From Candidatus Melainabacteria bacterium (GTDB lineage: Bacteria > Cyanobacteriota > Vampirovibrionia > LMEP-6097): a DNA stretch of 64,000 bases. The notes beneath the pieces are model-generated. The model made no database searches. It was not told where the DNA came from and was given only the letters and a program-made list of their open reading frames with translations. Position numbers and translations under genes: made by a program. The stretch covers positions 27,854 through 91,853 of the forward strand of contig DUDT01000002.1 in the NCBI GenBank assembly GCA_005110385.1, given 5' to 3'. Position 1 is the stretch's first letter. Each line of letters opens with the position of its first letter. Positions 6,464 through 55,996 of this stretch are shown here, piece after piece.

Positions 6464-7735
6464 GTGAGCTTAACTAATAATCCAAAAGAGTTCTTTCGGT
6501 GGCTAGAAACAGCCACTGAAGGAACTCTTTTTACTTTTATTTCCGAATGGCACACGAAAGGCGAGAGCAGTGAAGAACTAATTAAGTTTATAGAATTTCT
6601 TCGAGAAAAGGCGCCACCATTAAGCCTCAGGGATTTAGTTTACGACGAAAACGCAGGAATTGGAGTTTCGCTACACGCCCATCTTGCCTATGACTGTGCT
6701 GGTACCGGCGGCGATAAATCTCATAGCTTTAATATTTCTACCGGCACGGCCTTTCTTGCTGCTTACGCAGGCTTACCTGTAATTAAAAATGGCGGTCGCT
6801 CTGCTAGTAGTAAAGTAGGTTCAGTAGATGTACTTTATGAGCTAGGTTTAGATTTAGACATTAGTGAGGAAAGAAAACTAGAAGCCTTTCGAAAAGTAGG
6901 TTTAAGTTTTTTTTCTAGTAAAGTGTCTAGTGAATATCTACTGCCCGTAAAAAATTTAGCGAGGAAATATAAAGAATCCTGCTTTATAAATTTAATCGCT
7001 CCATTTCTCTCACCAATTGAGCTTCAGGGGCAGATCATTGGTATCGCTCAAGCTCGTTGGGTTCCAGTAATTAAAGAAATAGCTCAATACTTTATAAAAC
7101 AGGGCTACCGCCAAAAGTTTATCCTAGTACACTCAAACCAAGAGTTTTTAGAAAATTCTCTTAAAGAGCTAAGTGAGGGAAATACAGAGATTAGAGATTC
7201 CGAGCAGTCTCCTAACAGTACTAAGGCTGAGCTTATAAGTTCAATCTTAGATGAGTTTAATACAGCCCTGCCTTCTAAAATTATTTTCATTTCTTATAAT
7301 CCGCATTTTGACTTGTCTACAGAAAATGTACCTGTGAATAACTCTCCAACAGTAAACCTAAACGCTCAGCAAGCATATTATGAACAGGAATTTATACTCA
7401 ACCCAGCGAGCAAATCATTTTCAGAACTGGCATTAACAGCTGCAAAGCTTAAAGACCTAGAAGGCGGGAATACAAAAGAGAATGCTCAGATATTACTCAA
7501 AATCTTTAAAGGAGAGGCTCAAGACCCCAGATTAAGGATTAAAGCTGAGACTCTCGCCCTAAATACAGCCTTAATGCTTATGCTAAAAGAAGACTTTAGT
7601 CTTTTTTACGATGAAAGGAGCTTATTAAAAGAACTTACAGAGAATTACATAAAATTAAAAAAATTTCTTAAGACTCAGAATTTATATGAATTCCTAGAAG
7701 AATTACGCAAGTATTTCACAAAAGAAAAATTATGA
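6464..7735 (+). CDS. Anthranilate phosphoribosyltransferase-like (glycosyltransferase family 3) protein. It has a GTG start and carries an in-frame repeat insertion.
   Basis: 'CAGTGGD' and 'IKNGGRSASSKVGSVDVLYELG' match the TrpD GTGGDG and KHGNR..SS.SGSADVLEALG motifs. The insertion 'DENAGIGVSLHAH' lies immediately before GTGGD. Confidence 0.55.
   Translation: MSLTNNPKEFFRWLETATEGTLFTFISEWHTKGESSEELIKFIEFLREKAPPLSLRDLVYDENAGIGVSLHAHLAYDCAGTGGDKSHSFNISTGTAFLAAYAGLPVIKNGGRSASSKVGSVDVLYELGLDLDISEERKLEAFRKVGLSFFSSKVSSEYLLPVKNLARKYKESCFINLIAPFLSPIELQGQIIGIAQARWVPVIKEIAQYFIKQGYRQKFILVHSNQEFLENSLKELSEGNTEIRDSEQSPNSTKAELISSILDEFNTALPSKIIFISYNPHFDLSTENVPVNNSPTVNLNAQQAYYEQEFILNPASKSFSELALTAAKLKDLEGGNTKENAQILLKIFKGEAQDPRLRIKAETLALNTALMLMLKEDFSLFYDERSLLKELTENYIKLKKFLKTQNLYEFLEELRKYFTKEKL
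6641..6690 (+). repeat. Dispersed in-frame repeat element copy (core GACGAAAACGCAGGAATTGGAGTTTCGCTACACGCCCAT)
   Basis: Differs by about 2 mismatches from the copy at 9356-9410. Confidence 0.8.
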
Positions 7736-8704: not shown

Positions 8705-9688
8705 ATGTCTTTAGAGACTATTATCAAAAAGTATGGAGCGGAAAATATATCTTTCGCTTTACTGAAAAGGACTGACAGCGAAAACGCAGAGACTGAAGTT
8801 GTACAAGGCTCCCTAGAATTCGAAAATATACTTGAACATAACCTAGACAGCTACTTTCATCCAGCTAGTCTTTTAAAATTATTCATAAGCCTGATGGCAA
8901 GTGAGCTTTTGCTACAAAATAATCAGCCAGAAGTCAAAGAAACTGACTATGAAAAAAATGAATTAAGCAGAGCTATTCAGGAAAGTATCTCTGCATCAGA
9001 TAACGATGCTCTCGCTTTCCTTATCGATTATTTAGCATCTTATCCTTGGGATTATAATCTCATTAATACAGGAAATACCCTAAAATTCACTCCAAATCAG
9101 CAATCCCAAGATGTTTTAAATAAAATACTTAATAGCCGCCTTGAAATTAATAAATTCTTTTTAGAAAAAGGTTTTTCCGAAAAAATAAACCTCGTAAATA
9201 AATGCTTTGGCTTTGATTACTACGGCAAAGAGAAACAGATCTATGAAGCTCTAGACCAGAATCAGATCAATAATCGAGATCTAATAAAACTGTTAATCCT
9301 TATAGAAAAGGACTTTCCCCTTATTTTGAATTCCATGAAACGGACACTTAAAAATAATGAGGATGACGAAAACGCAGAAATTGGAGTTCCGCTACACGCC
9401 CATATTCCTAGTGGCATAATCAATACTGAAGATTATCAAGCTCAAGCCTTCTCAGGAAAAGTGCTTGCTGAGGAATTTAAAGTAAAAAGCATTTATTCTA
9501 AAGCTGGCTGGAATTCTAAAGTTAGGCATGACGCTGTGCTATTTAGCATAAACAAGGATGATGAAAACACAGAAAATGGCGCTGTGCAGCAGTCTCAGTA
9601 TATTTTAACTGTACTAACTAAGAACCTCAGTCATGACGAAGAGATTTTACAAGAAATCGCACGAGAAGTAATCTTGACCTTAAATTAG
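8705..9688 (+). CDS. Serine beta-lactamase-like (class A-like fold) hypothetical protein carrying three in-frame repeat-element copies
   Basis: 'HPASLLK' (SxxK), 'SASDNDA' (SDN) and 'KAGW..VRHDAVLF' (KTG-like) motifs. Repeat peptides 'DSENAETEV', 'DDENAEIGVPLHAH' and 'DDENTENGAVQQ' are also present. Confidence 0.35.
   Translation: MSLETIIKKYGAENISFALLKRTDSENAETEVVQGSLEFENILEHNLDSYFHPASLLKLFISLMASELLLQNNQPEVKETDYEKNELSRAIQESISASDNDALAFLIDYLASYPWDYNLINTGNTLKFTPNQQSQDVLNKILNSRLEINKFFLEKGFSEKINLVNKCFGFDYYGKEKQIYEALDQNQINNRDLIKLLILIEKDFPLILNSMKRTLKNNEDDENAEIGVPLHAHIPSGIINTEDYQAQAFSGKVLAEEFKVKSIYSKAGWNSKVRHDAVLFSINKDDENTENGAVQQSQYILTVLTKNLSHDEEILQEIAREVILTLN
8771..8813 (+). repeat. Degenerate copy of the dispersed repeat (GACAGCGAAAACGCAGAGACTGAAGTTGTACAAGG)
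   Basis: Matches the 54735-54790 variant (GACAGCGACGAAAACGCAGAAA...GTTGTGCAGCGG). Confidence 0.6.
9356..9410 (+). repeat. Dispersed in-frame repeat element copy (AATGAGGATGACGAAAACGCAGAAATTGGAGTTCCGCTACACGCCCATATTCCTA)
   Basis: Best-conserved copy. It shares its 5' 'AATGAGGAT' with the copy at 22001. Confidence 0.85.
9554..9598 (+). repeat. Variant copy of the dispersed repeat (AAGGATGATGAAAACACAGAAAATGGCGCTGTGCAGCAGTC)
   Basis: Matches GAAAACGCAGAAAATGGAGTTGTGCAGCGGTC at 54755-54790. Confidence 0.7.
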
Positions 9689-16263: not shown

Positions 16264-16336
16264 TTTTTCAGACTAGAACTCCAAAACACCCAAAAACTGG
16301 GTAAAATATTAATATTCAAGAAAGTATTTTAAAACC

Positions 16337-17476
16337 ATGGATATAAAAAGAGAAGTACAAATAGATAAACTTCTAAAAAAAGGCAAAGCCTTACTAATCT
16401 ATGGTGCAAGGCAGGTTGGAAAAACTACTTTAGTTAAAAACTTTCTTCTCAAGAATAAATCTAAATTCAGGCAGCGTACTGGAGAAGACATTCAGCTACA
16501 GATTTTATTTAAAGACCTTTCAATAACTGACTTAGACGAGTTTGTGGAAAATTTAGAAATTCTCATTATAGATGAGGCTCAAATTCTAGAGAATCTCGGC
16601 AGAGGAATTAAATTAATTTTAGATAGAAACCCAAAGCTAGCAATAATATTAACAGGTTCATCTTCATTTGAATTAGCAAATCAGCTCAGTGAGGCACTAA
16701 CTGGTAGGAAAAAAACTCAATCCCTCTTACCTCTTAGTATTAAAGAACTCTCTGAGCATTATGGTCGATATGAAATTAAACATAAACTAGAAGAATTATT
16801 ACTCTATGGCTCATACCCCGAAGTCATTACGACTGAAAATAAACATGAGAAGCGAGAACTGATCCTTGAGATAGCTAATAGCTATTTATTTAAAGATATT
16901 CTGAGTTTTTTAAATCTAAAAAAAGCTGATGTCCTTTATAAATTAACGAAATTACTTGCTTATCAAATCAGCTCAGAAGTGAATGTTAATGAGCTTGCGA
17001 GTAACTTACAAGTCGATAATAAAACTATTACTCATTACCTAGATATATTAGAAAAATCCTTTGTTATAAAAATGATTCCAGCCTTCAATAGTAATCAGAG
17101 AAACGAAATCAAAAAATCTAAAAAGATATATTTCTTAGATCTCGGTATTAGAAATGCTTTAATAAACCAGTTTCAAGACATAGAGTTACGAAATGACAAA
17201 GGAGCATTATGGGAGAATTTCGTTTTTCTGGAACTCTATAAGCGAATCGAATACGACAGAAGTTTTAAAACTATCTATTTTTGGCGAACCCATGAACAGC
17301 AGGAAATAGATTTTATCCTAGAAGCAGATGGTTTACTAGAACTCTATGAAGCTAAGTTTAATGCTAAAAAAAGCGCGAAGATCCCGCCGCAGTGGCTAAA
17401 ACATTATCCAGAATTTCAAGAATTAAAGCTGATTCATACTGGGAATTTTATGGATTATTTTACTAATACAGATTAG
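16337..17476 (+). CDS. AAA+ ATPase, COG1373/DUF4143 family (paralog 1)
   Basis: 'LLIYGARQVGKTTL' P-loop, 'ILIIDEAQ' Walker B and a C-terminal DUF4143-like region ('YFWRTHEQQEIDFIL'). Confidence 0.75.
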   Translation: MDIKREVQIDKLLKKGKALLIYGARQVGKTTLVKNFLLKNKSKFRQRTGEDIQLQILFKDLSITDLDEFVENLEILIIDEAQILENLGRGIKLILDRNPKLAIILTGSSSFELANQLSEALTGRKKTQSLLPLSIKELSEHYGRYEIKHKLEELLLYGSYPEVITTENKHEKRELILEIANSYLFKDILSFLNLKKADVLYKLTKLLAYQISSEVNVNELASNLQVDNKTITHYLDILEKSFVIKMIPAFNSNQRNEIKKSKKIYFLDLGIRNALINQFQDIELRNDKGALWENFVFLELYKRIEYDRSFKTIYFWRTHEQQEIDFILEADGLLELYEAKFNAKKSAKIPPQWLKHYPEFQELKLIHTGNFMDYFTNTD

Positions 17477-21461: not shown

Positions 21462-21508
21462 TTGTGGAATATATAATTTGGCTCATCCACTAAATAAAAG
21501 ATAAACCT

Positions 21509-22798
21509 ATGTTCCCTAGAGAATTCTGGATCACAAAAATACAAAAAGCTTGGAGACTGAGGTCTATCATCTGGCTAGTCGGCGTAAGGCGTATAGGTAA
21601 AACCACCTTAGTAAAGTCATTATCTGAGGGTGATAAGGCGGGTAAAAACGCAAAAAATGGAATTGCGCATGGGTCTCTTCTGTATTATGACTGTGAGTTA
21701 AAAAGAAACCGTGATCTTATTGAAAGCGATGTAGAAGAATTTTGGCAGGGAAAAGAAAATAAGATCGTAATCCTAGACGAGATTCATCGTTTAGAAAATC
21801 CTTCTGAAGTCCTGAAAATAGCTGCTGATCATTATTCTAATGTTAAGGTGATAGCTACGGGCTCATCTACTCTAGCTGCTAGTAAAAAATTTAAAGACAC
21901 TCTAAGTGGACGAAAAATCGTCATAGAGCTAAGACCATTAATAGAAGCTGATCTTCTTGCTTTTGCTCAGAATAAAAATCCCAAAATAATAGAACCTATA
22001 AATGAGGATAACGAAAACGCAGAAATTGGAGTTCGGCAACAGTGCCATAATACACTTTTAGAAAAACGCTTTCTCTACGGTGGCATGCCCGAGAATTATC
22101 TCAGTGACGAACTGCCTGAATACGCCTTTGAAGAATGGATTGACTCTTACTGGTCTAAAGATATTCAAGAACTTTATGAGCTGCGTAGTAAATTTGCTTT
22201 TCAGAAATTTATGGAATTGCTCTTTATACAGAGTGGCGGAATCTTTGAAGCTAGTAAATTTGCCACTGACTGTAAAGTTAGTAGTCCGACTATTAGTAAT
22301 TTTTTACACGTACTAGAAGAAACCTTTGTTATAGATGTTCTTCGTCCTTATCATAAACGAAAAAATTCTGAAATCGTTTCAGCACCTAAGGTTTATGCTT
22401 TTGACACTGGGCTTGCTTGTTATTTAAAAGGCTGGTCATCACTCAGGAACGAGGATTTAGGTATATTCTGGGAACACTTCGTTTTAAATGAACTAAAAGC
22501 TCAGCTCCAAAACAATGCAGACATACTATACTGGCGAAACAAAAAAAAGCAAGAAGTCGACTTTATAATTAAGAAAAAACGCTCACAGACTGTTATAGCT
22601 ATAGAAACTAAATGGCAAGCTAAAAATTTCAGCCCAGACAATCTACAAGCTTTTCGTGAACTACATCCAGAAGGAGAGAATTTTCTTATCGCCAATGATA
22701 TCCAAGAATCATATACAAAAAACTATACTGACCTGAAAGTAAAATTCATTAGTTTAAGAGAATTTATCTTGCAGATTACTCTTGGCACAGCTCCTTGA
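21509..22798 (+). CDS. AAA+ ATPase, COG1373/DUF4143 family (paralog 3), carrying an in-frame repeat-element insertion
   Basis: 'WLVGVRRIGKTTLVK' and 'IVILDEIHR'. The inserted peptide is 'NEDNENAEIGVRQQCHN'. Confidence 0.75.
   Translation: MFPREFWITKIQKAWRLRSIIWLVGVRRIGKTTLVKSLSEGDKAGKNAKNGIAHGSLLYYDCELKRNRDLIESDVEEFWQGKENKIVILDEIHRLENPSEVLKIAADHYSNVKVIATGSSTLAASKKFKDTLSGRKIVIELRPLIEADLLAFAQNKNPKIIEPINEDNENAEIGVRQQCHNTLLEKRFLYGGMPENYLSDELPEYAFEEWIDSYWSKDIQELYELRSKFAFQKFMELLFIQSGGIFEASKFATDCKVSSPTISNFLHVLEETFVIDVLRPYHKRKNSEIVSAPKVYAFDTGLACYLKGWSSLRNEDLGIFWEHFVLNELKAQLQNNADILYWRNKKKQEVDFIIKKKRSQTVIAIETKWQAKNFSPDNLQAFRELHPEGENFLIANDIQESYTKNYTDLKVKFISLREFILQITLGTAP
22001..22051 (+). repeat. Dispersed in-frame repeat element copy (AATGAGGATAACGAAAACGCAGAAATTGGAGTTCGGCAACAGTGCCATAAT)
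   Basis: Shares 'AATGAGGAT.ACGAAAACGCAGAAATTGGAGTT' with 9356-9410, and 'EIGV.(Q/E)QC' with the guaA copy. Confidence 0.8.
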
Positions 22799-28710: not shown

Positions 28711-29562
28711 TCAAGGCTTTGGCAACAGAGTGCTAACAGCTAGACTCTTTTTCCTAGCTAAGACTCCCCCGTTACGACGATTTAGTTTAGGTCCTTCAAA
28801 CAGCTCACAGCCAGCCTTGCTGAAACTATCTTTGGCTATACGTGCTGAACTGTAGGTAGAGATATAAGCTTTAGGCTTAGCTTTACTAACTACAGCTGCG
28901 ATAAATTCTTCTGTCCATAATACTGGACAGGTTTTAGGACTAAAGGGATCAAAAAAAATCGCATCAAAATAGTCATCTTCGATCTCAGTAACTGCATTTC
29001 GAGCATCATTTATTAAAATCCTCATATTAAGATTTTCTGTAAGTAAATTTAACTCACCGATGGTAGACGGCTGTAATACTTCACTTTCTACTTTTTCGTC
29101 ATCCTGATGTACAGCGCCACGACCAGAAGCAACTAATAATTTCTTTGCTTGCTCTGCAAGCGGCTTCATAATTGAGTCTCTAATAAATAGATAATCCTCA
29201 GGTACTTCTATATTCGGCAGTTCTGCGATAATCGCCGCATCATTTTCTAAACCTATTATCTCTATTCTCTGAGCTGGATTAATTTCCCATATTTTTTGAA
29301 TAGCGACGCCTGAATTATAAGCAAGACCGAAGCAGACATCTAGAATTCTTATTACTGGAAAACTTAAAATTGCAGGTTCCACAGAGGTCTCCGCAAGGGA
29401 AGAATTCGCAAGCTCATCTAATTTACAAGCCAGCACATGCTTATATAAGGCTTCCGTGTATGCCCCTATACTAGAGTGATAAGTCTCATTATATTCAAGA
29501 TTTTTATAAGTAGAACTACCATCTAGAGTAGTTTCCCTCACGAAAGGAGAATTAATATCCAT
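28711..29562 (-). CDS. MnmC/DUF752-type SAM-dependent methyltransferase (tRNA mnm5s2U methyltransferase-like)
   Basis: The 'AIFFDPFSPKTCPVLWTEEF' motif is characteristic of the MnmC methyltransferase domain. Confidence 0.5.
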   Translation of the reverse strand: MDINSPFVRETTLDGSSTYKNLEYNETYHSSIGAYTEALYKHVLACKLDELANSSLAETSVEPAILSFPVIRILDVCFGLAYNSGVAIQKIWEINPAQRIEIIGLENDAAIIAELPNIEVPEDYLFIRDSIMKPLAEQAKKLLVASGRGAVHQDDEKVESEVLQPSTIGELNLLTENLNMRILINDARNAVTEIEDDYFDAIFFDPFSPKTCPVLWTEEFIAAVVSKAKPKAYISTYSSARIAKDSFSKAGCELFEGPKLNRRNGGVLARKKSLAVSTLLPKP

Positions 29563-29980: not shown

Positions 29981-30003
29981 GCTTGCATTTTAACATGAGG
30001 GGG

Positions 30004-30160
30004 ACTGCTCGCAAACTTCAATTTCTGCGTTTTCGTCGTCCTCATGATCCTCATGTACCTTGAGTACACTGCGGTCATTCGTCCTCCTCAGCCTTGAACT
30101 TGTACGTTTGCAAGCAGCCCACGTGAATTGCTCGCAAACTTCAATTTCTGCACCACTCTC
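30004..30160 (-). repeat. Long intergenic copy of the dispersed repeat. It is palindromic and flanked by a direct duplication of GCAGAAATTGAAGTTTGCGAGCA.
   Basis: On the minus strand it reads ...GAGGACGACGAAAACGCAGAAATTGAAGTTTGCGAGCAG.... It contains an internal hairpin, GTTTGCGAGCA-N12-TGCTTGCAAAC. Confidence 0.75.
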
Positions 30161-31493
30161 ACTCTACTGGCACAGTATCAGTTTTTTTTTGGCTAATTTT
30201 AACTTTCAGTACCCTATTATCACGGCATTCTAATACTTCTAAAATAAAACCATTCGCCTCTAACTGAGCACCGATTACTGGGTCAGTACCTAAAAGACCA
30301 TAAATGAAACCACCGATAGTATCATAATGCTCAGACTCAAACTCAGAACCCAGTTCCTCATTAATTTCTCTCAGAGTCAGCTTACCATCTACTTTATAAA
30401 CACCTTTCGTGAGTTCCAGTAAAGGAACCTGTGAATGATCCTCAAACTCATTACTAATTTCACCGAAGACCTCTTCAACTATATCTTCAATAGTAACTAA
30501 TCCACTAGTACCACCATACTCATCAATAAGAATCGCTATCTGTTTTTTCTTCTGCTGCATCATCGACATTAAATCTATAATGTACATTCCATCAGGGACT
30601 TTTAAAACTTCTTTCACTATCGATTCTATAGGATCGTGCACCCCACCTCGTTCATAGGCACGCAACATCTCTTTAATGCTCACATAGCCGATGATCTTAT
30701 CTAATCTTTTCTGGAATACGGGAAATTTAGAAAAGGGATGCTTATTAGTAATCTTCATCGCCTCTTCGATACTAATACCAGCCTCAATACAGATCATATC
30801 TGTTCTCGGGTGCATTATATCTCTTGCGATAGTATCGTTAAACTGAAACACGTTCTGAATAAGCTTCTCTTCCTCTTCTTCGATAATCCCCTCTTCTTGA
30901 GAGGTACTCAGAATCAGCTTCAGCTCATCTTCAGAATGAATCGCATCAGTGGAATCCATATCTATTCCTATTAGCTTAAGAATAGAGTTAGAACAGAAAT
31001 TTAAAAGCATCACTGGTAATTTAAAAATCGTATGAATAAACTCTAAAAAGAAAGCTAATCTCAGACCAGTCTTCTCTGGATTAATTAAAGCTAAATTTTT
31101 AGGAATTAATTCACCAATTATGACATGAATAAACGTTACTAAAGCTATCGCACAGGCTAGAGAAATAGCATGAGGATCTATACCTAGATCTTGAATTTGA
31201 GAAATATAAGGAAGGAGTATCTCCTCTAATTTAGATTCAGCTAATGCACCAAGCACTAAACTCGCTACTGTAATACCTACTTGGCAGGCAGAGATATAAT
31301 CATTTATATTCTCTAATATTTTTTGTAAAATTTTTGCTGCCGCTAATTTTGGCAGATTCTTAGGGTTTCGAGAGTTTACGATGTGGTCTACTTGTGACTT
31401 TCTGAGTCTAGCTATCGCAAATTCTGCTGCAACGAATGTACCATTGAGAAGAATAATCCCGAAGATTAAAAGTAAAGACGAATAGTCTTCCAT
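30159..31493 (-). CDS. CNNM/DUF21-CBS-CorC_HlyC family transporter (hemolysin C / CorC-like)
   Basis: N-terminal DUF21 TM domain, a tandem CBS pair and a C-terminal 'transporter-associated' domain. Confidence 0.75.
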   Translation of the reverse strand: MEDYSSLLLIFGIILLNGTFVAAEFAIARLRKSQVDHIVNSRNPKNLPKLAAAKILQKILENINDYISACQVGITVASLVLGALAESKLEEILLPYISQIQDLGIDPHAISLACAIALVTFIHVIIGELIPKNLALINPEKTGLRLAFFLEFIHTIFKLPVMLLNFCSNSILKLIGIDMDSTDAIHSEDELKLILSTSQEEGIIEEEEEKLIQNVFQFNDTIARDIMHPRTDMICIEAGISIEEAMKITNKHPFSKFPVFQKRLDKIIGYVSIKEMLRAYERGGVHDPIESIVKEVLKVPDGMYIIDLMSMMQQKKKQIAILIDEYGGTSGLVTIEDIVEEVFGEISNEFEDHSQVPLLELTKGVYKVDGKLTLREINEELGSEFESEHYDTIGGFIYGLLGTDPVIGAQLEANGFILEVLECRDNRVLKVKISQKKTDTVPVE

Positions 31494-42518: not shown

Positions 42519-42989
42519 CTAAACAGTAGCTTTAATTAAATTCTCAGCTTCAGCACTAGGACTTACAATCACAGAAAACTTCGCCTCTGGGAAATGAAGC
42601 TTAATTTCATTTTCAGCTGTTTCGGGAGCATCACTACCATGAATAGCGTTATCACCGATGCTCTTTGCAAAAGCTTTACGGATAGTACCTTCAGCAGCTT
42701 GCTCTGGATTAGTCGCTCCCATTAACTCACGAGCTTTCTCTATAACATTTTCACCTTCCCAAACCATACCAAGAATAGGGCCGGAAGTGAAAGATGAAAT
42801 AAGCTCACCGAAGAAAGGTCTTTCTTTATGCACAGCATAATGAGCTGCTGCTAATTCTTTAGAAGGAGTGTAAGCCTTCATCGCTAAACACTTAGCATCT
42901 AATTTTTCTTCAAGCATTTTAACGATGCCCACTGTATCGTGACGTTTAAAAGATTCTGGTTTAACTGCTAAAAAAGTTTTTTGTGACAT
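42519..42989 (-). CDS. ndk: Nucleoside diphosphate kinase. The true start is at the internal Met 'MSQKTFLAVKP'. The ORF track runs on to 43187 without homology.
   Basis: 'ERTFLAVKPD' and the 'NAIHGSD' active-site His motif. Confidence 0.85.
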   Translation of the reverse strand: MSQKTFLAVKPESFKRHDTVGIVKMLEEKLDAKCLAMKAYTPSKELAAAHYAVHKERPFFGELISSFTSGPILGMVWEGENVIEKARELMGATNPEQAAEGTIRKAFAKSIGDNAIHGSDAPETAENEIKLHFPEAKFSVIVSPSAEAENLIKATV

Positions 42990-43027
42990 AGATACTGAGT
43001 ATAGCAAAAAATATTTACTGAGGCTTT

Positions 43028-43062
43028 TGGACAAATCAAGGATTATATCCCTGATTTGTCCA
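43028..43062. promoter_or_regulatory. Near-perfect 15-bp inverted repeat, TTGGACAAATCAAGG-N8-CCCTGATTTGTCCAA, between the divergent ndk and ATPase paralog 5
   Basis: Read directly: 'tttggacaaatcaaggattatatccctgatttgtccaaaa'. Confidence 0.5.
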
Positions 43063-43083
43063 AAACTGTGGTATAAGATTAAC

Positions 43084-44280
43084 GTGATCAAAAGAGAAAT
43101 AGAAGGACATTTAGAAAGAATTTCCTCCCAATATCCCGTAATCACCCTAACTGGACCAAGACAGACGGGGAAAACTTTTCTTGCCAAAAATTATTTTAAA
43201 AATAAACCCTACTTTAATTTAGAAGATTTAGAGTTACGTGAATTCGCATTAAATGATCCAAAAGGATTTCTCGGTCAAATGAAAGATGGTGGCATCATAG
43301 ATGAAATACAGCATGTACCCGAATTAATATCCTACATCCAAGTCATAGTCGATAAACATAGAGATAAAAAAGCTCAATTTATTCTCACTGGCTCACAACA
43401 ATTCGCTTTAATGAAAAGCATTAGCCAATCTTTAGCAGGTAGAACCAGCGTTATAAACCTTTTACCATGTAGTATTCAAGAAATATATAATTCAAAACGT
43501 ACTAATGAAATAAAAGACTTTAAAACAGAAATCAATGATAAAAATTTCTTTATTTACTATGGCTTTTACCCTGCTATCTACAAAGATAAAATCAACCCTA
43601 GTCATTTCTATGCTGACTACGTAAAAACTTACCTCGAAAGAGACTTAAACCAGTTACAGCAAATTCAAAACATCAGCCTATTTAGAAAATTTCTACGCGC
43701 CTGTGCAAGCAGAATAGGGCAGGTTTTAAATAAAGAGAGCCTTGGTAATGATATAGGCATCGATGCTAGTACCGTAGAGAGATGGCTTACTGTTCTAGAA
43801 ACCAGTTACATACTGTTTCGTCTAGAGCCTTATTTCGCTAATATTAATAAGCGCCTGATTAAATCACCCAAATTATATTTTTATGACGTCGGCTTAGCCA
43901 CTTATCTACTAAATATCAAAAGCCAATCACAGATTGATACACACCCCCTAAAAGGGTATCTTTTTGAAAATATGATAGTTATGGAGTTTTTAAAATCTAG
44001 ATTCAATCAAGGAAAAAATAATAATCTGAATTTTTATCGCGATAAAACTAAAGAAGTGGATCTCATAATGCGTGAGTCAGCTCATTTTACAGCTGTGGAG
44101 ATTAAATATGCAGAAACCATAAAAAATAATCTCTGGGAATCTTTAGACTATGTTTCTAAACTCTTCCCGAAAGAGTGTAATAAAAGAATCTTAGTTTATG
44201 GTGGAGCTGAAGAGCAGAATAGGACTGGGTTAAGAGTGATTCCATTTAATGAAGTTGGCAATCAAAATTCTGACAGCTAA
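43084..44280 (+). CDS. AAA+ ATPase, COG1373/DUF4143 family (paralog 5). The likely GTG start aligns with paralog 1 ('IKREIEGHL' vs 'IKREVQIDKL'). The ORF track starts at a TTG at 43027.
   Basis: 'ITLTGPRQTGKTFLAK' and 'GGIIDEIQH', with a DUF4143-like C-terminus. Confidence 0.7.
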   Translation: MIKREIEGHLERISSQYPVITLTGPRQTGKTFLAKNYFKNKPYFNLEDLELREFALNDPKGFLGQMKDGGIIDEIQHVPELISYIQVIVDKHRDKKAQFILTGSQQFALMKSISQSLAGRTSVINLLPCSIQEIYNSKRTNEIKDFKTEINDKNFFIYYGFYPAIYKDKINPSHFYADYVKTYLERDLNQLQQIQNISLFRKFLRACASRIGQVLNKESLGNDIGIDASTVERWLTVLETSYILFRLEPYFANINKRLIKSPKLYFYDVGLATYLLNIKSQSQIDTHPLKGYLFENMIVMEFLKSRFNQGKNNNLNFYRDKTKEVDLIMRESAHFTAVEIKYAETIKNNLWESLDYVSKLFPKECNKRILVYGGAEEQNRTGLRVIPFNEVGNQNSDS

Positions 44281-44295
44281 TGCCTAATTTATACT

Positions 44296-45531
44296 TTACC
44301 TAGCCATGCCTATCTTCTGAGCACGCTGATAAACCTTACCTTCAGTAAGTATCCCAGGAGCTACTATAACTTCAACTTCCTGCATCTCTTTTATAGTATG
44401 GGCTCCAAGCGTCGCCATAGAAGTTTTTAAAGCTCCTACTAAATTTTGACTGCCATCATCATATATAGCTGGACCGTGTAAAAGCTCTTTAGTAGTGCAT
44501 TCTGTGCCTACTTGGATTCTAGTACCACGTGGCAGTACTGGACTAGGTGTCGCCATACCCCAATGAAAACCTCTACCCGGTGCTTCTTTAGTCCTAGCAA
44601 AAGGTGAACCAATCATAACGCCATCAGCACCACAGGCTATCGCCTTACAGATATCACCACCAACAGCCATACCACCATCAGCGATAACTGGAATATATTT
44701 ACCAGTCTGTTTAAAATACTCTATCTGAGCAGCTTTACAGTCAGCTATAGAAGTAGCCATCGGTACACCAATACCAAGTACCCCCCTCGACGTACAGGCT
44801 GCACCAGGTCCTATTCCTATAAGCAAACCTGAAATCCCTGTGTCCATAAGCTTTAAAGCCACATTATAATCAGTGCAGTTTCCTAATATGACTGGTACAG
44901 ATCTTTCACTACAAAACTTCTTAATATCAAGAATGGTTTCAGGATTCGCATTAGCTTTAGATTCTAGAGAATGATGTTCTAAACCTACCACCGTTACCTG
45001 CATAAATATCATGTCTACGCCAGCTTCCTCTAGAATAGGGGCATATCTATTAGCATTAAATGGGGCTAAAGCTACGGCTGCGACAGCACCAGAAGCTTTT
45101 ATTTTTTTAACAGCTGCATAAATCAGCTCATCTTTAATCGGCTCTTGATATATCTTTCGCATTAAAGACACGTATTCTTCTCTAGAAGAAGCTGCTATCT
45201 GATCTAAAATCGCATTATAATTTTCATAACGAGTGTATATCCCTTGTAGATTTAAAACGGCAAGAGCATGATTCTCAGAAATCACTCCTGCATTATCAGG
45301 GCTGACTACACTATCCATAGCACTTGCGATAATAGGCGTACTTAAATTTAACCCACCTATCTGCCAGCTAGTATCACAAAGCTCTATGTCCAAAGTATTT
45401 CCGTTAGGTACTAAAGAAATCTCATCGAAACCATATGTCCTTCTTGCCTTCTTGGCTCTGCCTATACTGACATAATCATATTCAAATCCAGTCTCTGTAT
45501 ATATTTCGTTCATACCTATTCCTCTAATCAT
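44296..45531 (-). CDS. IMP dehydrogenase / GMP reductase family protein lacking the CBS subdomain
   Basis: '[24 protein letters not shown]' (catalytic Cys loop) and '[28 protein letters not shown]'. Confidence 0.75.
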
Positions 45532-45589: not shown

Positions 45590-47308
45590 CTACTCCCACT
45601 CTATAGTCGCTGGTGGCTTACTGGTTATGTCATAGACCACTCTATTGACGCCATCTACTTCATTAATAATGCGATTACTAATTTTCGCTAAAAGTTCATA
45701 AGGCATTCTTGCCCAATCTGCGGTCATAGCATCTTCACTGGTAACGGCTCTTAAGACTATCGGATGTGCGTAAGTTCTTTTATCACCCATCACACCGACG
45801 GATTTAACTGGTAAAACCGCTGTAAATATCTGCCAAACAAAATCATAGGCATTAGCTTTTATTAACTCTTCACGCACTATAAAATCTGAATCAGCGACCA
45901 TCTTAAGTTTATCTTCAGTAAGTTCACCTAGAACTCTTATAGCTAAACCTGGTCCAGGAAAAGGATGTCTGCGTACGATATATTCTGGGACGCCTAAAGC
46001 TTTAGCTAACTCTCTAACCTCATCTTTAAAGAGAGTCTTTAAAGGCTCTATGAGAGTGAATTTCAGGTCATCAGGCAAACCACCTACATTGTGGTGTGAC
46101 TTAATACTTGCAGCCACTCTTTTACCAGTTTTACTGTCTATGCGAACCCCTGAAGATTCTATTAAGTCAGAATAGAGAGTACCCTGTGCTAAAAATTTTA
46201 TTTCCATTTCACTGCACTGCTTATGCATAACAAGCTCTGCTTTTTCGCTATCACTACTAATAGATGCAGCTGAAAGAGCAAGGGTTGGGGCTTTCAATTT
46301 CGTAACTTCTTCCTGAAAAGTATAGATAAACTCTCTACCAATAATTTTCCGCTTCTGCTCAGGATCAGAAACACCAGCTAAAGCATTCATAAATTTTTCT
46401 TTAGCATTTATATACAATATCTGAATGCCAAAATCCTGCTTAAAGCTCTGCATTAGCTCCTCTGGCTCATTTTTACGCATAAAACCATGATCGATAAACA
46501 TGCAGATTAACTGATCGCCTACAGCTTCTTTCAGAAGAAAAGCCAGCGTAGAACTATCTACACCACCTGAAAGAGCCAGTAAGACTTTCTGTTCCCCCAC
46601 TGTATTTCTAATACTCTCTATTTGATCATTTATAAAAGACTGCATATCCCAGTCCTGAGAACATTTACAGATATTTAAAATAAAATTACTGATAATCTCA
46701 GTCCCGAATTCACTATGAGTAACCTCTGGGTGGAACTGTACTCCATAAAGCTTTCTAGCCGTATCTTCAAAAGCTGCTATCGCTGTATTGGCTGTTCTAG
46801 CAGAAATTTTAAAATGGCACTGCTCTGAGACATAATCACAGTGGCTCATCCACACAGAAATAGCTACTTCATCGCACTGCTCATGAACTCCAATTTCTAC
46901 GTTTTCGTCGTCCTCATACTTAATGCCATAAAACAATGAATTTTTATCGCCTTGAAAGCCAGTATTAATAAACAACTCAGCCTTACCATATTCTCTTGTA
47001 TCACTGCGCAGAACTTTAGCACCAAAATGATCTGCTAGAAGCTGCATCCCGTAACAGATTCCTAAAATAGGCACTGGTAAATCTAAAATAACTAAATCAC
47101 AGAGCAAAGCTTCTGAATCATAAATACTATTAGGACCACCCGAAAGAATAATCCCTTTTAAAATACCAGCCTCATAATCTTTCTTGATAAACTCAAATGA
47201 ATAATCAAAAGGTTTAACTTCACTATAAACTCGCAGCTGCCTTATTCGCTTAGCGATTAGCTCTGTATATTGAGACCCAAAGTCTAGAATAAGAATTTTT
47301 TCTTGCAT
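45590..47308 (-). CDS. guaA: GMP synthase (glutamine-hydrolysing), with a repeat-element insertion in the GATase domain
   Basis: GATase '[11 protein letters not shown]', PP-loop 'LSGGVDSST' and the C-terminal 'KPPATIEWE'. Inserted peptide '[17 protein letters not shown]'. Confidence 0.9.
46871..46917 (-). repeat. Dispersed in-frame repeat element copy inside guaA (minus strand: ATGAGGACGACGAAAACGTAGAAATTGGAGTTCATGAGCAGTGCGAT)
   Basis: Same orientation as the host gene. Shares 'ATGAGGA.GACGAAAACG.AGAAATTGGAGTT' with the other copies. Confidence 0.8.
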
Positions 47309-53165: not shown

Positions 53166-53918
53166 ATGAGTAAAACAGTTAAATTCTCAGTAAAAAGACA
53201 GGACGAACCGAGTTCTAAGCCATACTTAGATGAGTTCGAAGTTCCATATGAGGAGGGCATGAACGTCACGACCTTGTTAATGGCGACTAGGCAGTTTCCT
53301 ACCACTTGTGATGGTAAAGCTACTACACCAGTGTCATTTGAAAGTGCTTGTTTAGAGGAAGTCTGCGGTTCTTGTACTATGATAGTTAACGGAAAAGTAA
53401 GACAGGCTTGTACCGCTCTTGTAGACAAGCTTTCTCAGCCGATTAAATTAGAACCTATGACTAAATTCCCAGTCAGAAGAGACCTAGTCGTCGATAGATC
53501 GCAGATGTTTAAGGCTCTTAAAAAAGTAAAAGCCTGGATAGAAATAGACGGTGTCTATGACTTAGGCGAAGGACCTAAAGTCTACCCTCATGAACAAGAA
53601 AAGAATTACGTGCTTAGTAGATGTATGACCTGTGGCTGCTGCTTAGAAGCCTGTCCGCAGTGGACTAATGATTTAGAGTTTATCGGCCCTCAAGCGATTT
53701 CTCAAGCTGTATTATTTAACAGCCACCCTAACGGCGTTAGCACTAAAGGTGACAGAATAGAAGCCTTAGTAGATAATGGTTTAAATAACTGTGGTAACGC
53801 ACAGAACTGTGTAAAAGCCTGCCCTAAAGAGATTCCTCTTACTGATAGTATCGCTAGAGCGAATAGGGAAGCCACTGTTTATACGGTTGAAAAATGGTTA
53901 ATCGACGCAGTAAGCTAG
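53166..53918 (+). CDS. sdhB: Succinate dehydrogenase / fumarate reductase iron-sulfur subunit. No sdhA/C/D are adjacent.
   Basis: 2Fe-2S 'CLEEVCGSCTMIVNG', 4Fe-4S 'CMTCGCCLEACP' and 3Fe-4S 'CGNAQNCVKACP'. Confidence 0.8.
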   Translation: MSKTVKFSVKRQDEPSSKPYLDEFEVPYEEGMNVTTLLMATRQFPTTCDGKATTPVSFESACLEEVCGSCTMIVNGKVRQACTALVDKLSQPIKLEPMTKFPVRRDLVVDRSQMFKALKKVKAWIEIDGVYDLGEGPKVYPHEQEKNYVLSRCMTCGCCLEACPQWTNDLEFIGPQAISQAVLFNSHPNGVSTKGDRIEALVDNGLNNCGNAQNCVKACPKEIPLTDSIARANREATVYTVEKWLIDAVS

Positions 53919-54733
53919 ATAAATTTCAGACTTCGCTGTTCTTTATATTTCCATGGTTTTTTGGGTTTCTCTGTTTTTTCCTAGGGCCTTTACTCGCGAG
54001 TCTCTGCCTATCTTTCACTAATTATGATGGCTTAAATATTCCCGACTTTATCGGGCTTACGAATTATTCTAGGCTTCTTAGCGATGATAGCCTTTATACC
54101 TCTTTACGAGTGACTCTCAGTTTCGCTATCATGAATCTCTCTCTAGGAACTATAGTTGCTATCGCTCTAGCTATACTCTTAAATCAAGAAGATATAAAAG
54201 GCTCTAGCTTTTTCCGCACACTATTCTATATTCCGACTATCATTCCTATTGTCGCTTCTAGTGTTACCTGGATATGGTTATTTAAAAAAATTCACACTCC
54301 TAGCCTTCTCTCAGATGAAAACTTAGCGCTGCCAGCTTTAGTTATAATTAGCCTCTGGTCATTAGGAAACCCTATGCTGATCTACTTAGCAGGGCTTAAA
54401 AATATCCCGACCTATCTTTATGAATCTGCTGAAATCGACTCTGCAAGCGAATGGCAGAAATTCTGGCATATCACCTTACCTTCACTGAGCCCAGTCATAC
54501 TATTTAATGTCGTTATAGGTATCATCCAAGTCTTTCAATATTTCGTCCCAGCTTATGTTATGACCTCTGGTGGACCTAAAAATGCGACTCTTTTCTATTC
54601 ATTGTACATATATCAAAAAGCCTTCGAGGATTTCGAAATGGGCTATGCGAGTGCCTTAGCGTGGGTTTTATTTTTAATTATTACGGGTTTTACTTATCTC
54701 GCTTTTCGAGTTTTACCAAAATCGGAGCATTAA
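53894..54733 (+). CDS. Carbohydrate ABC transporter permease (MalF/UgpA type) with no partner ABC genes nearby
   Basis: EAA motif region 'YESAEIDSASEWQKFWHITLPSLSPVI'. Six TM helices. Confidence 0.7.
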   Translation: MVNRRSKLDKFQTSLFFIFPWFFGFLCFFLGPLLASLCLSFTNYDGLNIPDFIGLTNYSRLLSDDSLYTSLRVTLSFAIMNLSLGTIVAIALAILLNQEDIKGSSFFRTLFYIPTIIPIVASSVTWIWLFKKIHTPSLLSDENLALPALVIISLWSLGNPMLIYLAGLKNIPTYLYESAEIDSASEWQKFWHITLPSLSPVILFNVVIGIIQVFQYFVPAYVMTSGGPKNATLFYSLYIYQKAFEDFEMGYASALAWVLFLIITGFTYLAFRVLPKSEH

Positions 54734-54734
54734 G

Positions 54735-54790
54735 ACAGCGACGAAAACGCAGAAAGACGAAAACGCAGAAAATGGAGTTGTGCAGCGGTC
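54735..54790 (+). repeat. Intergenic copy of the dispersed repeat with an internal tandem duplication (GACGAAAACGCAGAAA x2), then ...AATGGAGTTGTGCAGCGGTC
   Basis: 'gacagcgacgaaaacgcagaaagacgaaaacgcagaaaatggagttgtgcagcggtc'. It overlaps the last codon of the permease gene. Confidence 0.75.
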
Positions 54791-54793
54791 TTA

Positions 54794-55996
54794 CTAAACC
54801 TGCAAAGCAAGTGGGTGGCTCTTACAAAAAGCTTCTATACCATCACAAGCTCTCTCCAATGCCTGCACGTCCTGTACCATCGCTATACGAATATGACCTT
54901 CACCATTAGCTCCAAAAGTCACTCCGGGAACCACGGAGACACCAGTCTCTTTTAAGAGTTTAGTTGCAAACTCCAGTGAAGTTACGTTAATCGGCACCCA
55001 AACATACATAGCACCTTTCGGATTCATAGGTTTAAAACCAATATTTCTTAAGCGTGGGACTAAATAATCTCGCCTTCTTTCATACTCTAAACGAATTTCT
55101 TCTCTGTAATCATCACCTAGATTGAGTGCTGCGATACCAGCTTCCTGAATACCCATACAGACGCCATAATCTAAATTAGTCTTAAGTTTATAAAGAGTAT
55201 GAATTATCTCTGGGTTACCACAAGCAAACCCCAACCTCATTCCAGCCATATTATAAGTTTTAGAAAAAGTATGAAACTCTATCGCTACATCCATAGCTCC
55301 CTCGACTTCTAAAATTGAACATGATTTATGCTCATCGAACCAAATCTCAGAATAAGCTAAATCATTAAGCAAGATGATGTTATATTTCTTACAAAGATCC
55401 ACAGCTTTCTTAAGGTAAGCCTTATTCACAGAGGCTCCTGTAGGATTATGCGGATAGCTAAGAATCAGAATCTTAGCTCTAATTAAAACATCTTCTGGAA
55501 TAGCGTCTAAATCACCGACATACTGGTTTTCTGGCTTTAAAGGTAATTCATAGACATGCCCGCCAGATAAAACTGTCGCACGCATATGTACTGGATAGTA
55601 AGGACTTGGTGTAATAGTTATATCACCTTCCTGAATATAGGCGAAGGCTAGGTGCCCGATCCCTTCCTTAGAACCTATTAACGGTAAAACATGAGTAGCT
55701 GGATCAAGCGTAACTGCAAAACGGCTGGAAAACCACTCACAGATACGTTCTTTAAAAGCAGGTAAACCACTGAAAATAGGATACTGCTGATTACGCAGCT
55801 TATGCATACCATCGTATAAAGCTTTAAGTACAGTCGGATGCGTAGGACGATCTGGCGAACCTAAACTTAAATCTATAAGCTCTTTACCCTCGGCAGCGAC
55901 TTCCATTTTTAGCTCATCTAACTGTCCAAACGCGTATGGAGGCATGTCTACGAGCCTTAAAGATGGGAGTACCCTATAATCCGAGTAAAGTTTCAT
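54794..55996 (-). CDS. PLP-dependent aminotransferase, class I/II (AspAT/LL-DAP-AT-like)
   Basis: PLP-lysine region 'FHTFSKTYNMAGMRLGF'. About 400 aa, fold-type I. Confidence 0.75.
   Translation of the reverse strand: MKLYSDYRVLPSLRLVDMPPYAFGQLDELKMEVAAEGKELIDLSLGSPDRPTHPTVLKALYDGMHKLRNQQYPIFSGLPAFKERICEWFSSRFAVTLDPATHVLPLIGSKEGIGHLAFAYIQEGDITITPSPYYPVHMRATVLSGGHVYELPLKPENQYVGDLDAIPEDVLIRAKILILSYPHNPTGASVNKAYLKKAVDLCKKYNIILLNDLAYSEIWFDEHKSCSILEVEGAMDVAIEFHTFSKTYNMAGMRLGFACGNPEIIHTLYKLKTNLDYGVCMGIQEAGIAALNLGDDYREEIRLEYERRRDYLVPRLRNIGFKPMNPKGAMYVWVPINVTSLEFATKLLKETGVSVVPGVTFGANGEGHIRIAMVQDVQALERACDGIEAFCKSHPLALQV

Follow-up and report, generated by a model that had tools for sequence, protein, structure and literature searches.

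Three in-frame segments of a predicted serine hydrolase gene of Vampirovibrionia are very likely remnants of a non-autonomous palindromic element

Introduction

How does a gene come to carry three copies of the same repeat within its coding sequence, and can such a gene still be functional? This question is raised by a 327-aa open reading frame (ORF) in a stretch of 64,000 nucleotides from Candidatus Melainabacteria bacterium (lineage Vampirovibrionia; contig DUDT01000002.1, positions 27,854 to 91,853), which was analyzed at its full length and is referred to as the window. A preliminary description of this DNA had noted the peptides DSENAETEV (residues 24-32), DDENAEIGVPLHAH (220-233) and DDENTENGAVQQ (285-296) in the ORF, which it considered serine-hydrolase-like, and had proposed that they are copies or variants of one repeat element and that the gene is either a hotspot that accumulated insertions or a decaying gene kept open by in-frame elements. 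[quoted passage not shown] Our verdict is that the host gene is a tolerated insertion hotspot and that the element represents a previously unknown family resembling the Rickettsia palindromic elements (RPE). The host gene and its three element sites are as follows; confidence in the structural model is given as the predicted local distance difference test (pLDDT).

8705-9688, plus strand: host gene (327 aa), intact and under purifying selection, homologue of class A beta-lactamase-like (Pfam Beta-lactamase2-related) serine hydrolases
8774-8812, plus strand: site 1, degenerate short (3') remnant, GACAGCGAAAACGCAGAGACTGAAGTTGTACAAGGCTCC, encoding DSENAETEVVQGS, in the loop between strands 15-22 and 39-45, pLDDT below 50 at residues 26-36
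9357-9401, plus strand: site 2, well-preserved short remnant, ATGAGGATGACGAAAACGCAGAAATTGGA and right arm GTTCCGCTACACGCCC, encoding (N)EDDENAEIGVPLHA, in loop 220-234
9554-9595, plus strand: site 3, short remnant of another subfamily, AAGGATGATGAAAACACAGAAAATGGC and arm GCTGTGCAGCAGTCT, encoding KDDENTENGAVQQS, in the beta-hairpin loop 284-296

Results

Relationship of the three segments at the DNA level

The segments in the host gene correspond to the final 39-45 nt (13-15 codons) of a 121-nt unit, that is, to its 3' module and right arm. When a 33-nt intergenic copy (54759-54791) was used as reference, 29, 25 and 24 of the 33 positions were identical at the three sites of the host ORF, whereas 500 simulations of this ORF under a first-order Markov model gave best matches of 17 identities on average and 21 at most. 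Two further external copies used as reference gave the same outcome against the simulated ORFs. A profile built solely from full-length copies outside the host gene and applied to a search space of 1.5 Mb matched positions 9357-9401 (E 4e-14), 9555-9595 (E 0.005) and 8774-8805 (E 0.008). Likewise, a repeat search of the window (families D1-D3 and inverted pairs I1-I4) tied the segments 9356-9404, 9551-9599 and 8779-8805 to copies outside the host gene at 6635-6683, 22001-22049, 54747-54795, 30001-30045, 46871-46917 and 29067-29108. The identity of site 1 is backed by orthologues, as a canonical copy, GGCGAAAATGCAGAAAATGGAGCTGTGCAGCGGTCT, is present at the same position in the related loci L106 and L066. 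If the inserts stay in the host protein, peptides such as NNEDDENAEIGVPLHAHIPSGIINTEDYQAQAFSGK are expected.

The preliminary description had tied its claim of a common repeat to a similarity of the underlying DNA beyond chance. Since the segments are related in DNA, and all three are recovered by the external profile, this claim is borne out; the description missed, however, the longer 121-nt parent, of which the segments are 3' remnants.

Anatomy of the element

The full element comprises a 16-nt left arm (e.g., GGCACTGTTGCCGAAC), an 89-nt core (GAACAAGTTCAAGGCTGAGGAGGACGAATGACCGCAGTGTACTnnnnGTACATGAGGATCATGAGGACGACGAAAACGCAGAAATTGGA) and a right arm of 16 nt that is complementary to the left one. 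In a pattern search, 54 of 57 both-armed long-form copies were exactly 121 nt long, and a wider search for both arms added classes of 75 nt and of about 190-202 nt. The arms differ among subfamilies yet stay complementary: pairing amounts to 92% in the terminal stem alone and to 94% of cells over both helices, in 14 of the 16 pairs of the terminal stem both partners have changed, and none of 500 shuffles attained the observed values. A small central hairpin in the core, which is conserved at 90-100%, covaries as well. An exact 5-bp direct repeat flanks 18 of the 57 copies and a repeat matching at 4 of 5 positions a further 13, as compared to 0.8% and 6.9%, respectively, in mismatched-flank controls. 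This target duplication is A/T-rich with the consensus ATGAT, and no signal was obtained for other lengths.

The element thus has several features of a MITE: it is shorter than 300 bp and lacks a transposase gene, it carries terminal inverted repeats with a fixed-length duplication, and its copies are dispersed, polymorphic and numerous. CRISPR repeats, REP/BIME sequences, IS200/IS605 ends, group II intron fragments and Tn3-type ends were set aside as identities on the basis of anatomy, because the element combines 16-nt terminal inverted repeats with a 5-bp duplication, forms no array and does not have ends consisting of subterminal hairpins only.

Each insertion adds 121 + 5 = 126 nt or 42 codons and therefore cannot shift the reading frame. 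The length plus 5 is divisible by three for the classes of 121, 130, 190, 199 and 202 nt, of which those of 130-202 nt are rarer, and not for the 75-nt class, which is absent from ORFs. Reading the consensus by eye, we found two of the six frames of the full element and five of the six frames of the short module to be fully open, and one open frame of the full element reads GTVAERTSSRLRRTNDRSVLRVHEDHEDDENAEIGVxQQx.

Variants of about 190-202 nt contain an extra module of about 80 nt within the central hairpin, GTAATTTCC...GGAAATAC plus AAGCTTGATTTATCAAGCTT. They occur in L022 (4476-4675) and also in L056, L017, L018, L001, L102, L041 and L006, and three of four 202-nt copies lie in frame within long ORFs. 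The stems of the module covary (GGAT/ATCC versus GCAT/ATGC), and the module may be a nested second element or mark a variant closer to the parent. Head-to-tail arrays of the short-long-long type were observed in L099 (5526-5760) and L072 (1787-2164), where the right arm, a 2-6-nt spacer and the next left arm together form a perfect palindrome.

Strong covariation of two helices and an almost invariant core across five genomes could also be explained by a functional structured RNA or DNA motif that is under selection for mRNA stability, termination or regulation, with mobility being secondary. The additional covarying stems of the 200-nt variants fit this explanation, as does the preference of intergenic copies in loci L001-L105 for convergent gaps (15 copies) over divergent, promoter-containing gaps (3 copies). 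However, complementary arms are also expected of any inverted-repeat transposon, the majority of copies lie inside coding sequences, and most are truncated remnants that lack one arm and therefore the structure. Moreover, an Rfam search of the whole window gave no match at gathering thresholds, and a permissive search (E<=1) with one 200-nt copy yielded only a chance snoRNA match. We therefore consider a selected structured motif quite improbable. The window contains no tRNA or tmRNA genes.

Distribution, orientation and reading frame of the copies

In a genome collection, 105 stretches contained the exact 21-mer GAAAACGCAGAAATTGGAGTT, and all of them belong to five metagenome-assembled genomes (MAGs) of the Vampirovibrionia/Caenarcaniphilales type. 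These MAGs (JBMOEX, JBJTTW, RFQS01, CANHDW and JAGWWP) are variously labeled as Vampirovibrionia, Candidatus Caenarcaniphilales, Cyanobacteria, 'bacterium' and Proteobacteria. The last-named label, that of 'Proteobacteria bacterium WB4_1_1465' (L003, L066 and other RFQS01 loci), is probably wrong; this MAG carries the element and the same syntenic bla-like/dcd/pilT locus as the Vampirovibrionia MAGs. Most copies in the sampled loci extend upstream into the longer unit.

A census of 0.77 Mb of related draft MAG sequence identified at least 258 non-redundant copies. Open frames of at least 150 codons hold about two thirds of these (168 of 258); of the 168, 152 (106 short and 46 long copies) are in sense orientation and in a single frame (..HEDDENAEIGV..). 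Of the complete 121-nt copies, 33 of 59 are in frame in ORFs of this size. A second count gave 129 co-oriented and 4 anti-oriented copies within genes, and 14 copies of either orientation in the gaps between tandem genes, where no orientation bias is apparent. The host proteins are unrelated to each other and include a TrpD-like protein, GMP synthase, a methyltransferase, an AAA_14/DUF4143 ATPase and an HsdR-like protein. Since the intergenic copies are unbiased in orientation, we infer that the insertion process has no preferred orientation and that all copies other than sense, in-phase ones are removed from genes by selection.

The sole match in a collection of viral contigs was a short in-frame copy, YLEDDENAEIGVRQHCQ, at 3620-3665 of L118 (IMGVR_UViG_3300042866_002883), located in a 1086-aa ORF that is HsdR-like as read by eye. 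This sequence is probably a host fragment or a prophage region of the same lineage. As two scans of the viral contigs revealed this one short copy and no full element, there is no sign of a phage vector.

Functionality of the host gene

The host protein contains SLLK (55-58), SDN (98-100) and KAG (266-268) in the order typical of class A. In an alignment of 25 homologues, S55/K58, S98-D99-N100 and K266-A267 are invariant and G268 is nearly so (at least 90%), and the invariant columns, these catalytic motifs included, number 39. Altogether 47 homologues of 256 to 360 aa were found, none of which bears a protein name. The length variation among the aligned homologues is confined to five loops, and orthologues carry between zero and five element copies, always in these same five loops. 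An AlphaFold2 model computed with the homologue alignment as input is confident (pLDDT 80.4; predicted template modeling score, pTM, 0.82), and its only low-confidence segments are residues 26-36, 73-78, 116-129, 220-234 and 286-292. Three of these (26-36, 220-234 and 286-292) are the element sites, where the inserts lie between secondary-structure elements at a pLDDT below 50, while 73-78 and 116-129 are the loops in which the homologues P0025 and P0019 hold extra copies.

Because a search of PDB sequences with the host family profile gave no matches, folds had to be compared. Foldseek matched the model to class A beta-lactamases and their relatives, with 4hes as the best hit (E 6e-8) and a probability of 1.00 for 4hes, TEM-1, PER-2 and BlaC; the sequence identity to these solved enzymes is 10-14%. 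The intact host protein scores 17.1 bits against PF13354 (Beta-lactamase2), below the gathering cut-off of 22. When the three segments SENAETEVVQGSLE, EDDENAEIGVPLHAH and KDDENTENGAVQQ were excised in silico, which leaves 285 aa, the score rose to 26.8 bits (E 4e-6), and the insert-poor homologues P0032 (22.6 bits) and P0045 (35.7 bits) likewise exceed the cut-off. By eye, no obvious signal peptide or lipobox is visible at the N-terminus (8705-8770, MSLETIIKKYGAENISFALLKR...), a feature that, if real, would be uncommon among class A beta-lactamases and penicillin-binding proteins. The host protein is predicted to have a class A beta-lactamase-like fold and should not be named a beta-lactamase.

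The sub-threshold Pfam score of the intact protein and the wide range of homologue lengths could be taken as signs that the gene is a pseudogene in decay, or is hypervariable, and that its frame is kept open solely by elements inserted in phase. However, the ratio of nonsynonymous to synonymous substitutions (dN/dS), determined against seven orthologues with the element segments left out, is 0.09-0.19 at a dS of 0.39-0.62. In addition, the open frame is preserved across all orthologues in the codon alignment, the locus is syntenic among relatives and 21 contigs from independent samples code for the identical 327-aa protein. Together with the 39 invariant columns, the confident fold prediction and the restriction of length changes to five loops, these data speak against the pseudogene explanation, which is already refuted by dN/dS and the conserved motifs and which we regard as extremely improbable. 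Judged by sequence constraint and the structural model, the host gene appears to be functional and not decaying. Of the two fates proposed in the preliminary description, a decaying gene is contradicted, while a hotspot of insertions fits the zero to five copies per orthologue. Its assignment of the ORF to serine-hydrolase-like proteins also agrees with the conserved motifs and the predicted fold, and the excision of the segments that it had suggested as a check carried the protein past the PF13354 cut-off.

Turnover of copies at orthologous sites

The codon alignment of the orthologues was used to follow the three sites among relatives. At site 1, where the window copy is degenerate, the canonical copies of L066 and L106 belong to the GTTGTGCAGCGGTCT subfamily, while L110 and L062 retain 9-nt scraps (GAAAACGCA or GACAACGAA) and L108 has none. 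At site 2 a short copy is present in most orthologues. In L110 (P0021) a degenerate short copy precedes a complete 121-nt element at this site, all in frame, and in L106 the element and eight native codons have been lost between GAGGAT and GAAGAT repeats. NAEIGV- or DDEKAEI-like sequences persist at site 2 in the distant homologues P0034 and P0035, down to about 47% identity. At site 3 the window arm GCTGTGCAGCAGTCT differs at many positions from the orthologue arm GTTTGCGAGCGGTCT even though the flanks are 85-90% identical, which argues for replacement or conversion; in L113 only a 9-nt scrap, GAGCGGTCT, remains.

Similar events were observed at other loci, for which roughly 28 groups of orthologous sites are available. 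About one third of all full copies lie 3-10 nt downstream of an older short copy. Where L061 has a full copy, L024 and L060 have a short one, the two forms being separated by a clean deletion of 99 nt (33 codons) at an ACGA microhomology. L104 contains a short and a long copy, while the single short copy of L031 combines the 5' marker GCGGGC of the old copy with the arm of the new one, as would be expected if the two copies had recombined across their common GAAAACGCAGAAATTGGAGTT. Other copies have lost internal sequence and retain both arms, as in L030 (4383) compared to L105 and in the 75-nt copies. Short copies have a sharp 3' end, where the end of the right arm is followed by a target-like pentamer, and ragged 5' ends. 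The 22-nt 3' module is 90% conserved at orthologous sites compared to 83% for the flanking sequence.

The higher conservation of the 3' module, the persistence of site 2 in P0034 and P0035 and the strong dominance of one frame and orientation inside genes would also be expected if the (D/E)DENAEIGV peptide were a selected protein module, i.e., a linear motif or flexible acidic linker acquired for its function and not selfish DNA. However, the same DNA is found between genes in both orientations, complete with inverted arms and target duplications, and close orthologues lose, truncate or swap copies while retaining the gene. The host proteins are also unrelated and the segments are predicted to be disordered. 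A selected protein module is therefore very improbable.

Points against a MITE-like origin

Several observations weigh against the interpretation of the segments as remnants of a MITE-like element. The 0.77 Mb of draft MAG sequence contained no autonomous element among left-end/right-end pairs up to 6 kb apart, the DNA between these ends coding solely for HisS and other unrelated proteins, and the multi-copy ORFs of the sampled loci did not include a transposase. Because neither an autonomous partner nor a transposase was found, mobility of the element is proposed from its anatomy and polymorphism. In addition, sequence variation is highest in the arms and lowest in the core, opposite to what is typical of a transposase-driven MITE. 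The full copy at site 2 of L110 is flanked by ACGTT and ATGAT and thus has no matching 5-bp duplication. Site 1, the most degenerate of the three, shows weak similarity by itself (E about 0.008). Finally, 3' remnants outnumber 5' remnants in the window by about 8-11 to 1.

This last imbalance, which is also seen between genes, raises the possibility that the short copies were never full and result from independent insertions that began at the right arm and stopped early, either by one-ended transposition or by an RNA-templated, 5'-truncating process. The sharp 3' and ragged 5' boundaries of the short copies and the start of many of them just 3' of the central hairpin are in line with such a process. 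On the other hand, long and short copies at orthologous sites are related by clean deletions and recombination, internally deleted copies with both arms exist (75 nt; L030 4383), the unbiased orientation of intergenic copies argues against a coupling to transcription, and no reverse transcriptase was seen. The excess of 3' remnants by itself can be explained by deletion and selection and also by 5'-truncating insertion; taking all observations together, we regard truncated insertion as unlikely and favor the trimming of full copies.

Copies and expanded proteins in the window

About 14 copies or fragments are present on both strands of the window, and the core 13-mer GAYGAAAAYRCAG occurs 12 times (at most one mismatch) compared to 0.57 expected occurrences. 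The copies outside the host gene are listed below.

30001-30121, minus strand: only full-length copy (121 nt) of the window, consisting of left arm TGGGCTGCTTGCAAAC, a conserved core that includes the central hairpin, and right arm GTTTGCGAGCAGTCCC; intergenic, between a CNNM/CorC gene and a MAPEG gene
30129-30151, minus strand: short copy, partial, located next to the full copy on its upstream side (short-then-long), directly past the stop codon of 30159-31493
6639-6682, plus strand: short copy, DENAGIGVSLHAH, in frame in the neighboring TrpD-like gene, with a weaker second fragment at 7180-7212
22002-22048, plus strand: short copy, NEDNENAEIGVRQQCH, in frame in an AAA_14/DUF4143 ATPase gene, with a weaker fragment at 21645-21670
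29065-29108, minus strand: degenerate short copy, QDDEKVESEVLQPS, in frame in a Methyltransf_30 gene
46872-46917, minus strand: short copy in frame in the GMP synthase gene
54739-54793, plus strand: intergenic partial-tandem short copy between the convergent genes 53894-54733 (plus strand) and 54794-55996 (minus strand)

The partial short copy in the gap 30122-30158 begins 8 nt past the stop codon of the CNNM/CorC gene (30159-31493), and insertion of the element may have reshaped the C-terminus of this gene. The whole 60-nt gap 54734-54793 consists of a partial tandem duplication of the 3' module, with GACGAAAACGCAGAAA present twice and followed by the arm.

According to BLAST clustering, ATPases with AAA_14 and DUF4143 domains are the only expanded protein family, with four paralogues in the window and 11-14 members in the sampled loci as a whole. 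In three of the four paralogues the domains were verified with Pfam, and one member holds two element copies. These ATPases are not a known transposase, and to our knowledge they have no link to transposition.

16312-17473: AAA_14 + DUF4143 paralogue
21493-22795: AAA_14 + DUF4143 paralogue
42942-44277: AAA_14 + DUF4143 paralogue
44147-45266: AAA_14 + DUF4143 paralogue

Discussion

The most likely history of the three segments starts with element copies that would land in either orientation; selection within genes would spare only those that are in sense and in phase and lie in tolerant surface loops. As seen at orthologous sites, full copies are trimmed by in-frame deletion at microhomologies, or an old remnant recombines with a new copy that has landed a few nucleotides downstream, and such trimming would leave the acidic, hydrophilic 3' module together with the right arm. 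Insertion beside a remnant and subsequent collapse could thus account for the 3'-module remnants, for arm swaps at fixed sites and for the better conservation of the 3' module. With several permissive loops in its protein, the host gene would have repeatedly collected, trimmed and exchanged remnants while staying functional. A gene with three copies is then an ordinary outcome of an element family meeting a protein with several permissive loops.

A bolder proposal, to which we attach little confidence, is that the machinery that moves the element reads the terminal stem and the invariant core instead of the terminal sequence and that the family may be specially adapted to coding sequence. Stem recognition would fit the freely varying but complementary arms, the landings 3-10 nt downstream of remnants and the failure to find a transposase. 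An adaptation to coding sequence would fit the major length classes, all of which give a multiple of three when 5 bp are added, and the presence of one benign open frame.

With respect to its host protein, the locus resembles class A beta-lactamases and PF13354 in the order of SxxK, SDN and K(T/A)G and in a predicted fold like that of 4hes, TEM-1, PER-2 and BlaC, and differs from the solved enzymes in an identity of as little as 10-14%. For annotation this means that inserts can push real domains below curated hidden Markov model thresholds, as seen here for PF13354, and that they make proteins from Vampirovibrionia MAGs look more divergent than they are. Our search for literature that ties Melainabacteria, Vampirovibrionia or Caenarcaniphilales to MITEs or palindromic elements found nothing relevant.

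Inverted repeats of the Tn3 family are about 38 bp long and begin with GGGG. Like Tn3-derived TIMEs, the element duplicates 5 bp of A/T-rich targets; unlike them, it has only 16 inverted nucleotides of variable sequence, and no Tn3-type transposase was seen in the sampled loci. We found no evidence for membership in the Tn3/TIME group.

The element shares small size, non-autonomy, terminal inverted repeats, target duplications and high copy number with the Correia, ERIC, YPAL and Coxiella QMITE elements, some copies of which (in the case of Correia, of the 107-bp form) are fused in frame to host ORFs (PMC2229807, PMC10969869, PMC5896051). However, those elements lie chiefly between genes, and their ends or duplications are for the most part of the TA type, while about two thirds of the copies described here are intragenic and the duplication is 5 bp long. 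The divisibility by three of every major length class plus 5 also sets the present element apart.

The closest analogues are the RPE, which are 105-146 bp long, have terminal inverted repeats and a long stem-loop and are inserted in frame in conserved genes; a guanylate kinase with an RPE insert is still translated and active (PMC2229807, PMC10969869). Like the RPE, the element is a palindrome of about 100-150 bp that occurs in frame in many unrelated conserved genes as well as between genes and encodes a conserved peptide that host proteins appear to tolerate, and in the model of the host protein its inserts lie in predicted surface loops that are compatible with the fold. Unlike the RPE, which reside in obligate intracellular Rickettsia, it is found in Vampirovibrionia MAGs, most of its copies are 3' remnants of 30-48 nt, and it combines a clear 5-bp target duplication with variable, compensated arms and an invariant core; the target duplication of RPE is entered as '?' in PMC2229807. 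From its anatomy we would therefore say that the element works like RPE, and we do not file it as a member of that family.

RPE are an extreme case of selfish DNA in protein-coding genes, and their mode of spread is still unexplained. With the present element there is now an independent family from an unrelated lineage, one for which an obligately intracellular life is not known. Its copies fall into several size classes, and its orthologous sites are caught at different stages, from the full copy through trimmed copies, swapped arms and scraps to loss. It thereby offers a second natural system for studying the movement of such elements, the reasons for their tolerance by proteins and their possible role in seeding new loops in enzymes. 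Palindromic in-frame elements as a kind were already known from RPE; what is new here is the unrelated lineage, the clear 5-bp duplication and the mostly intragenic location.

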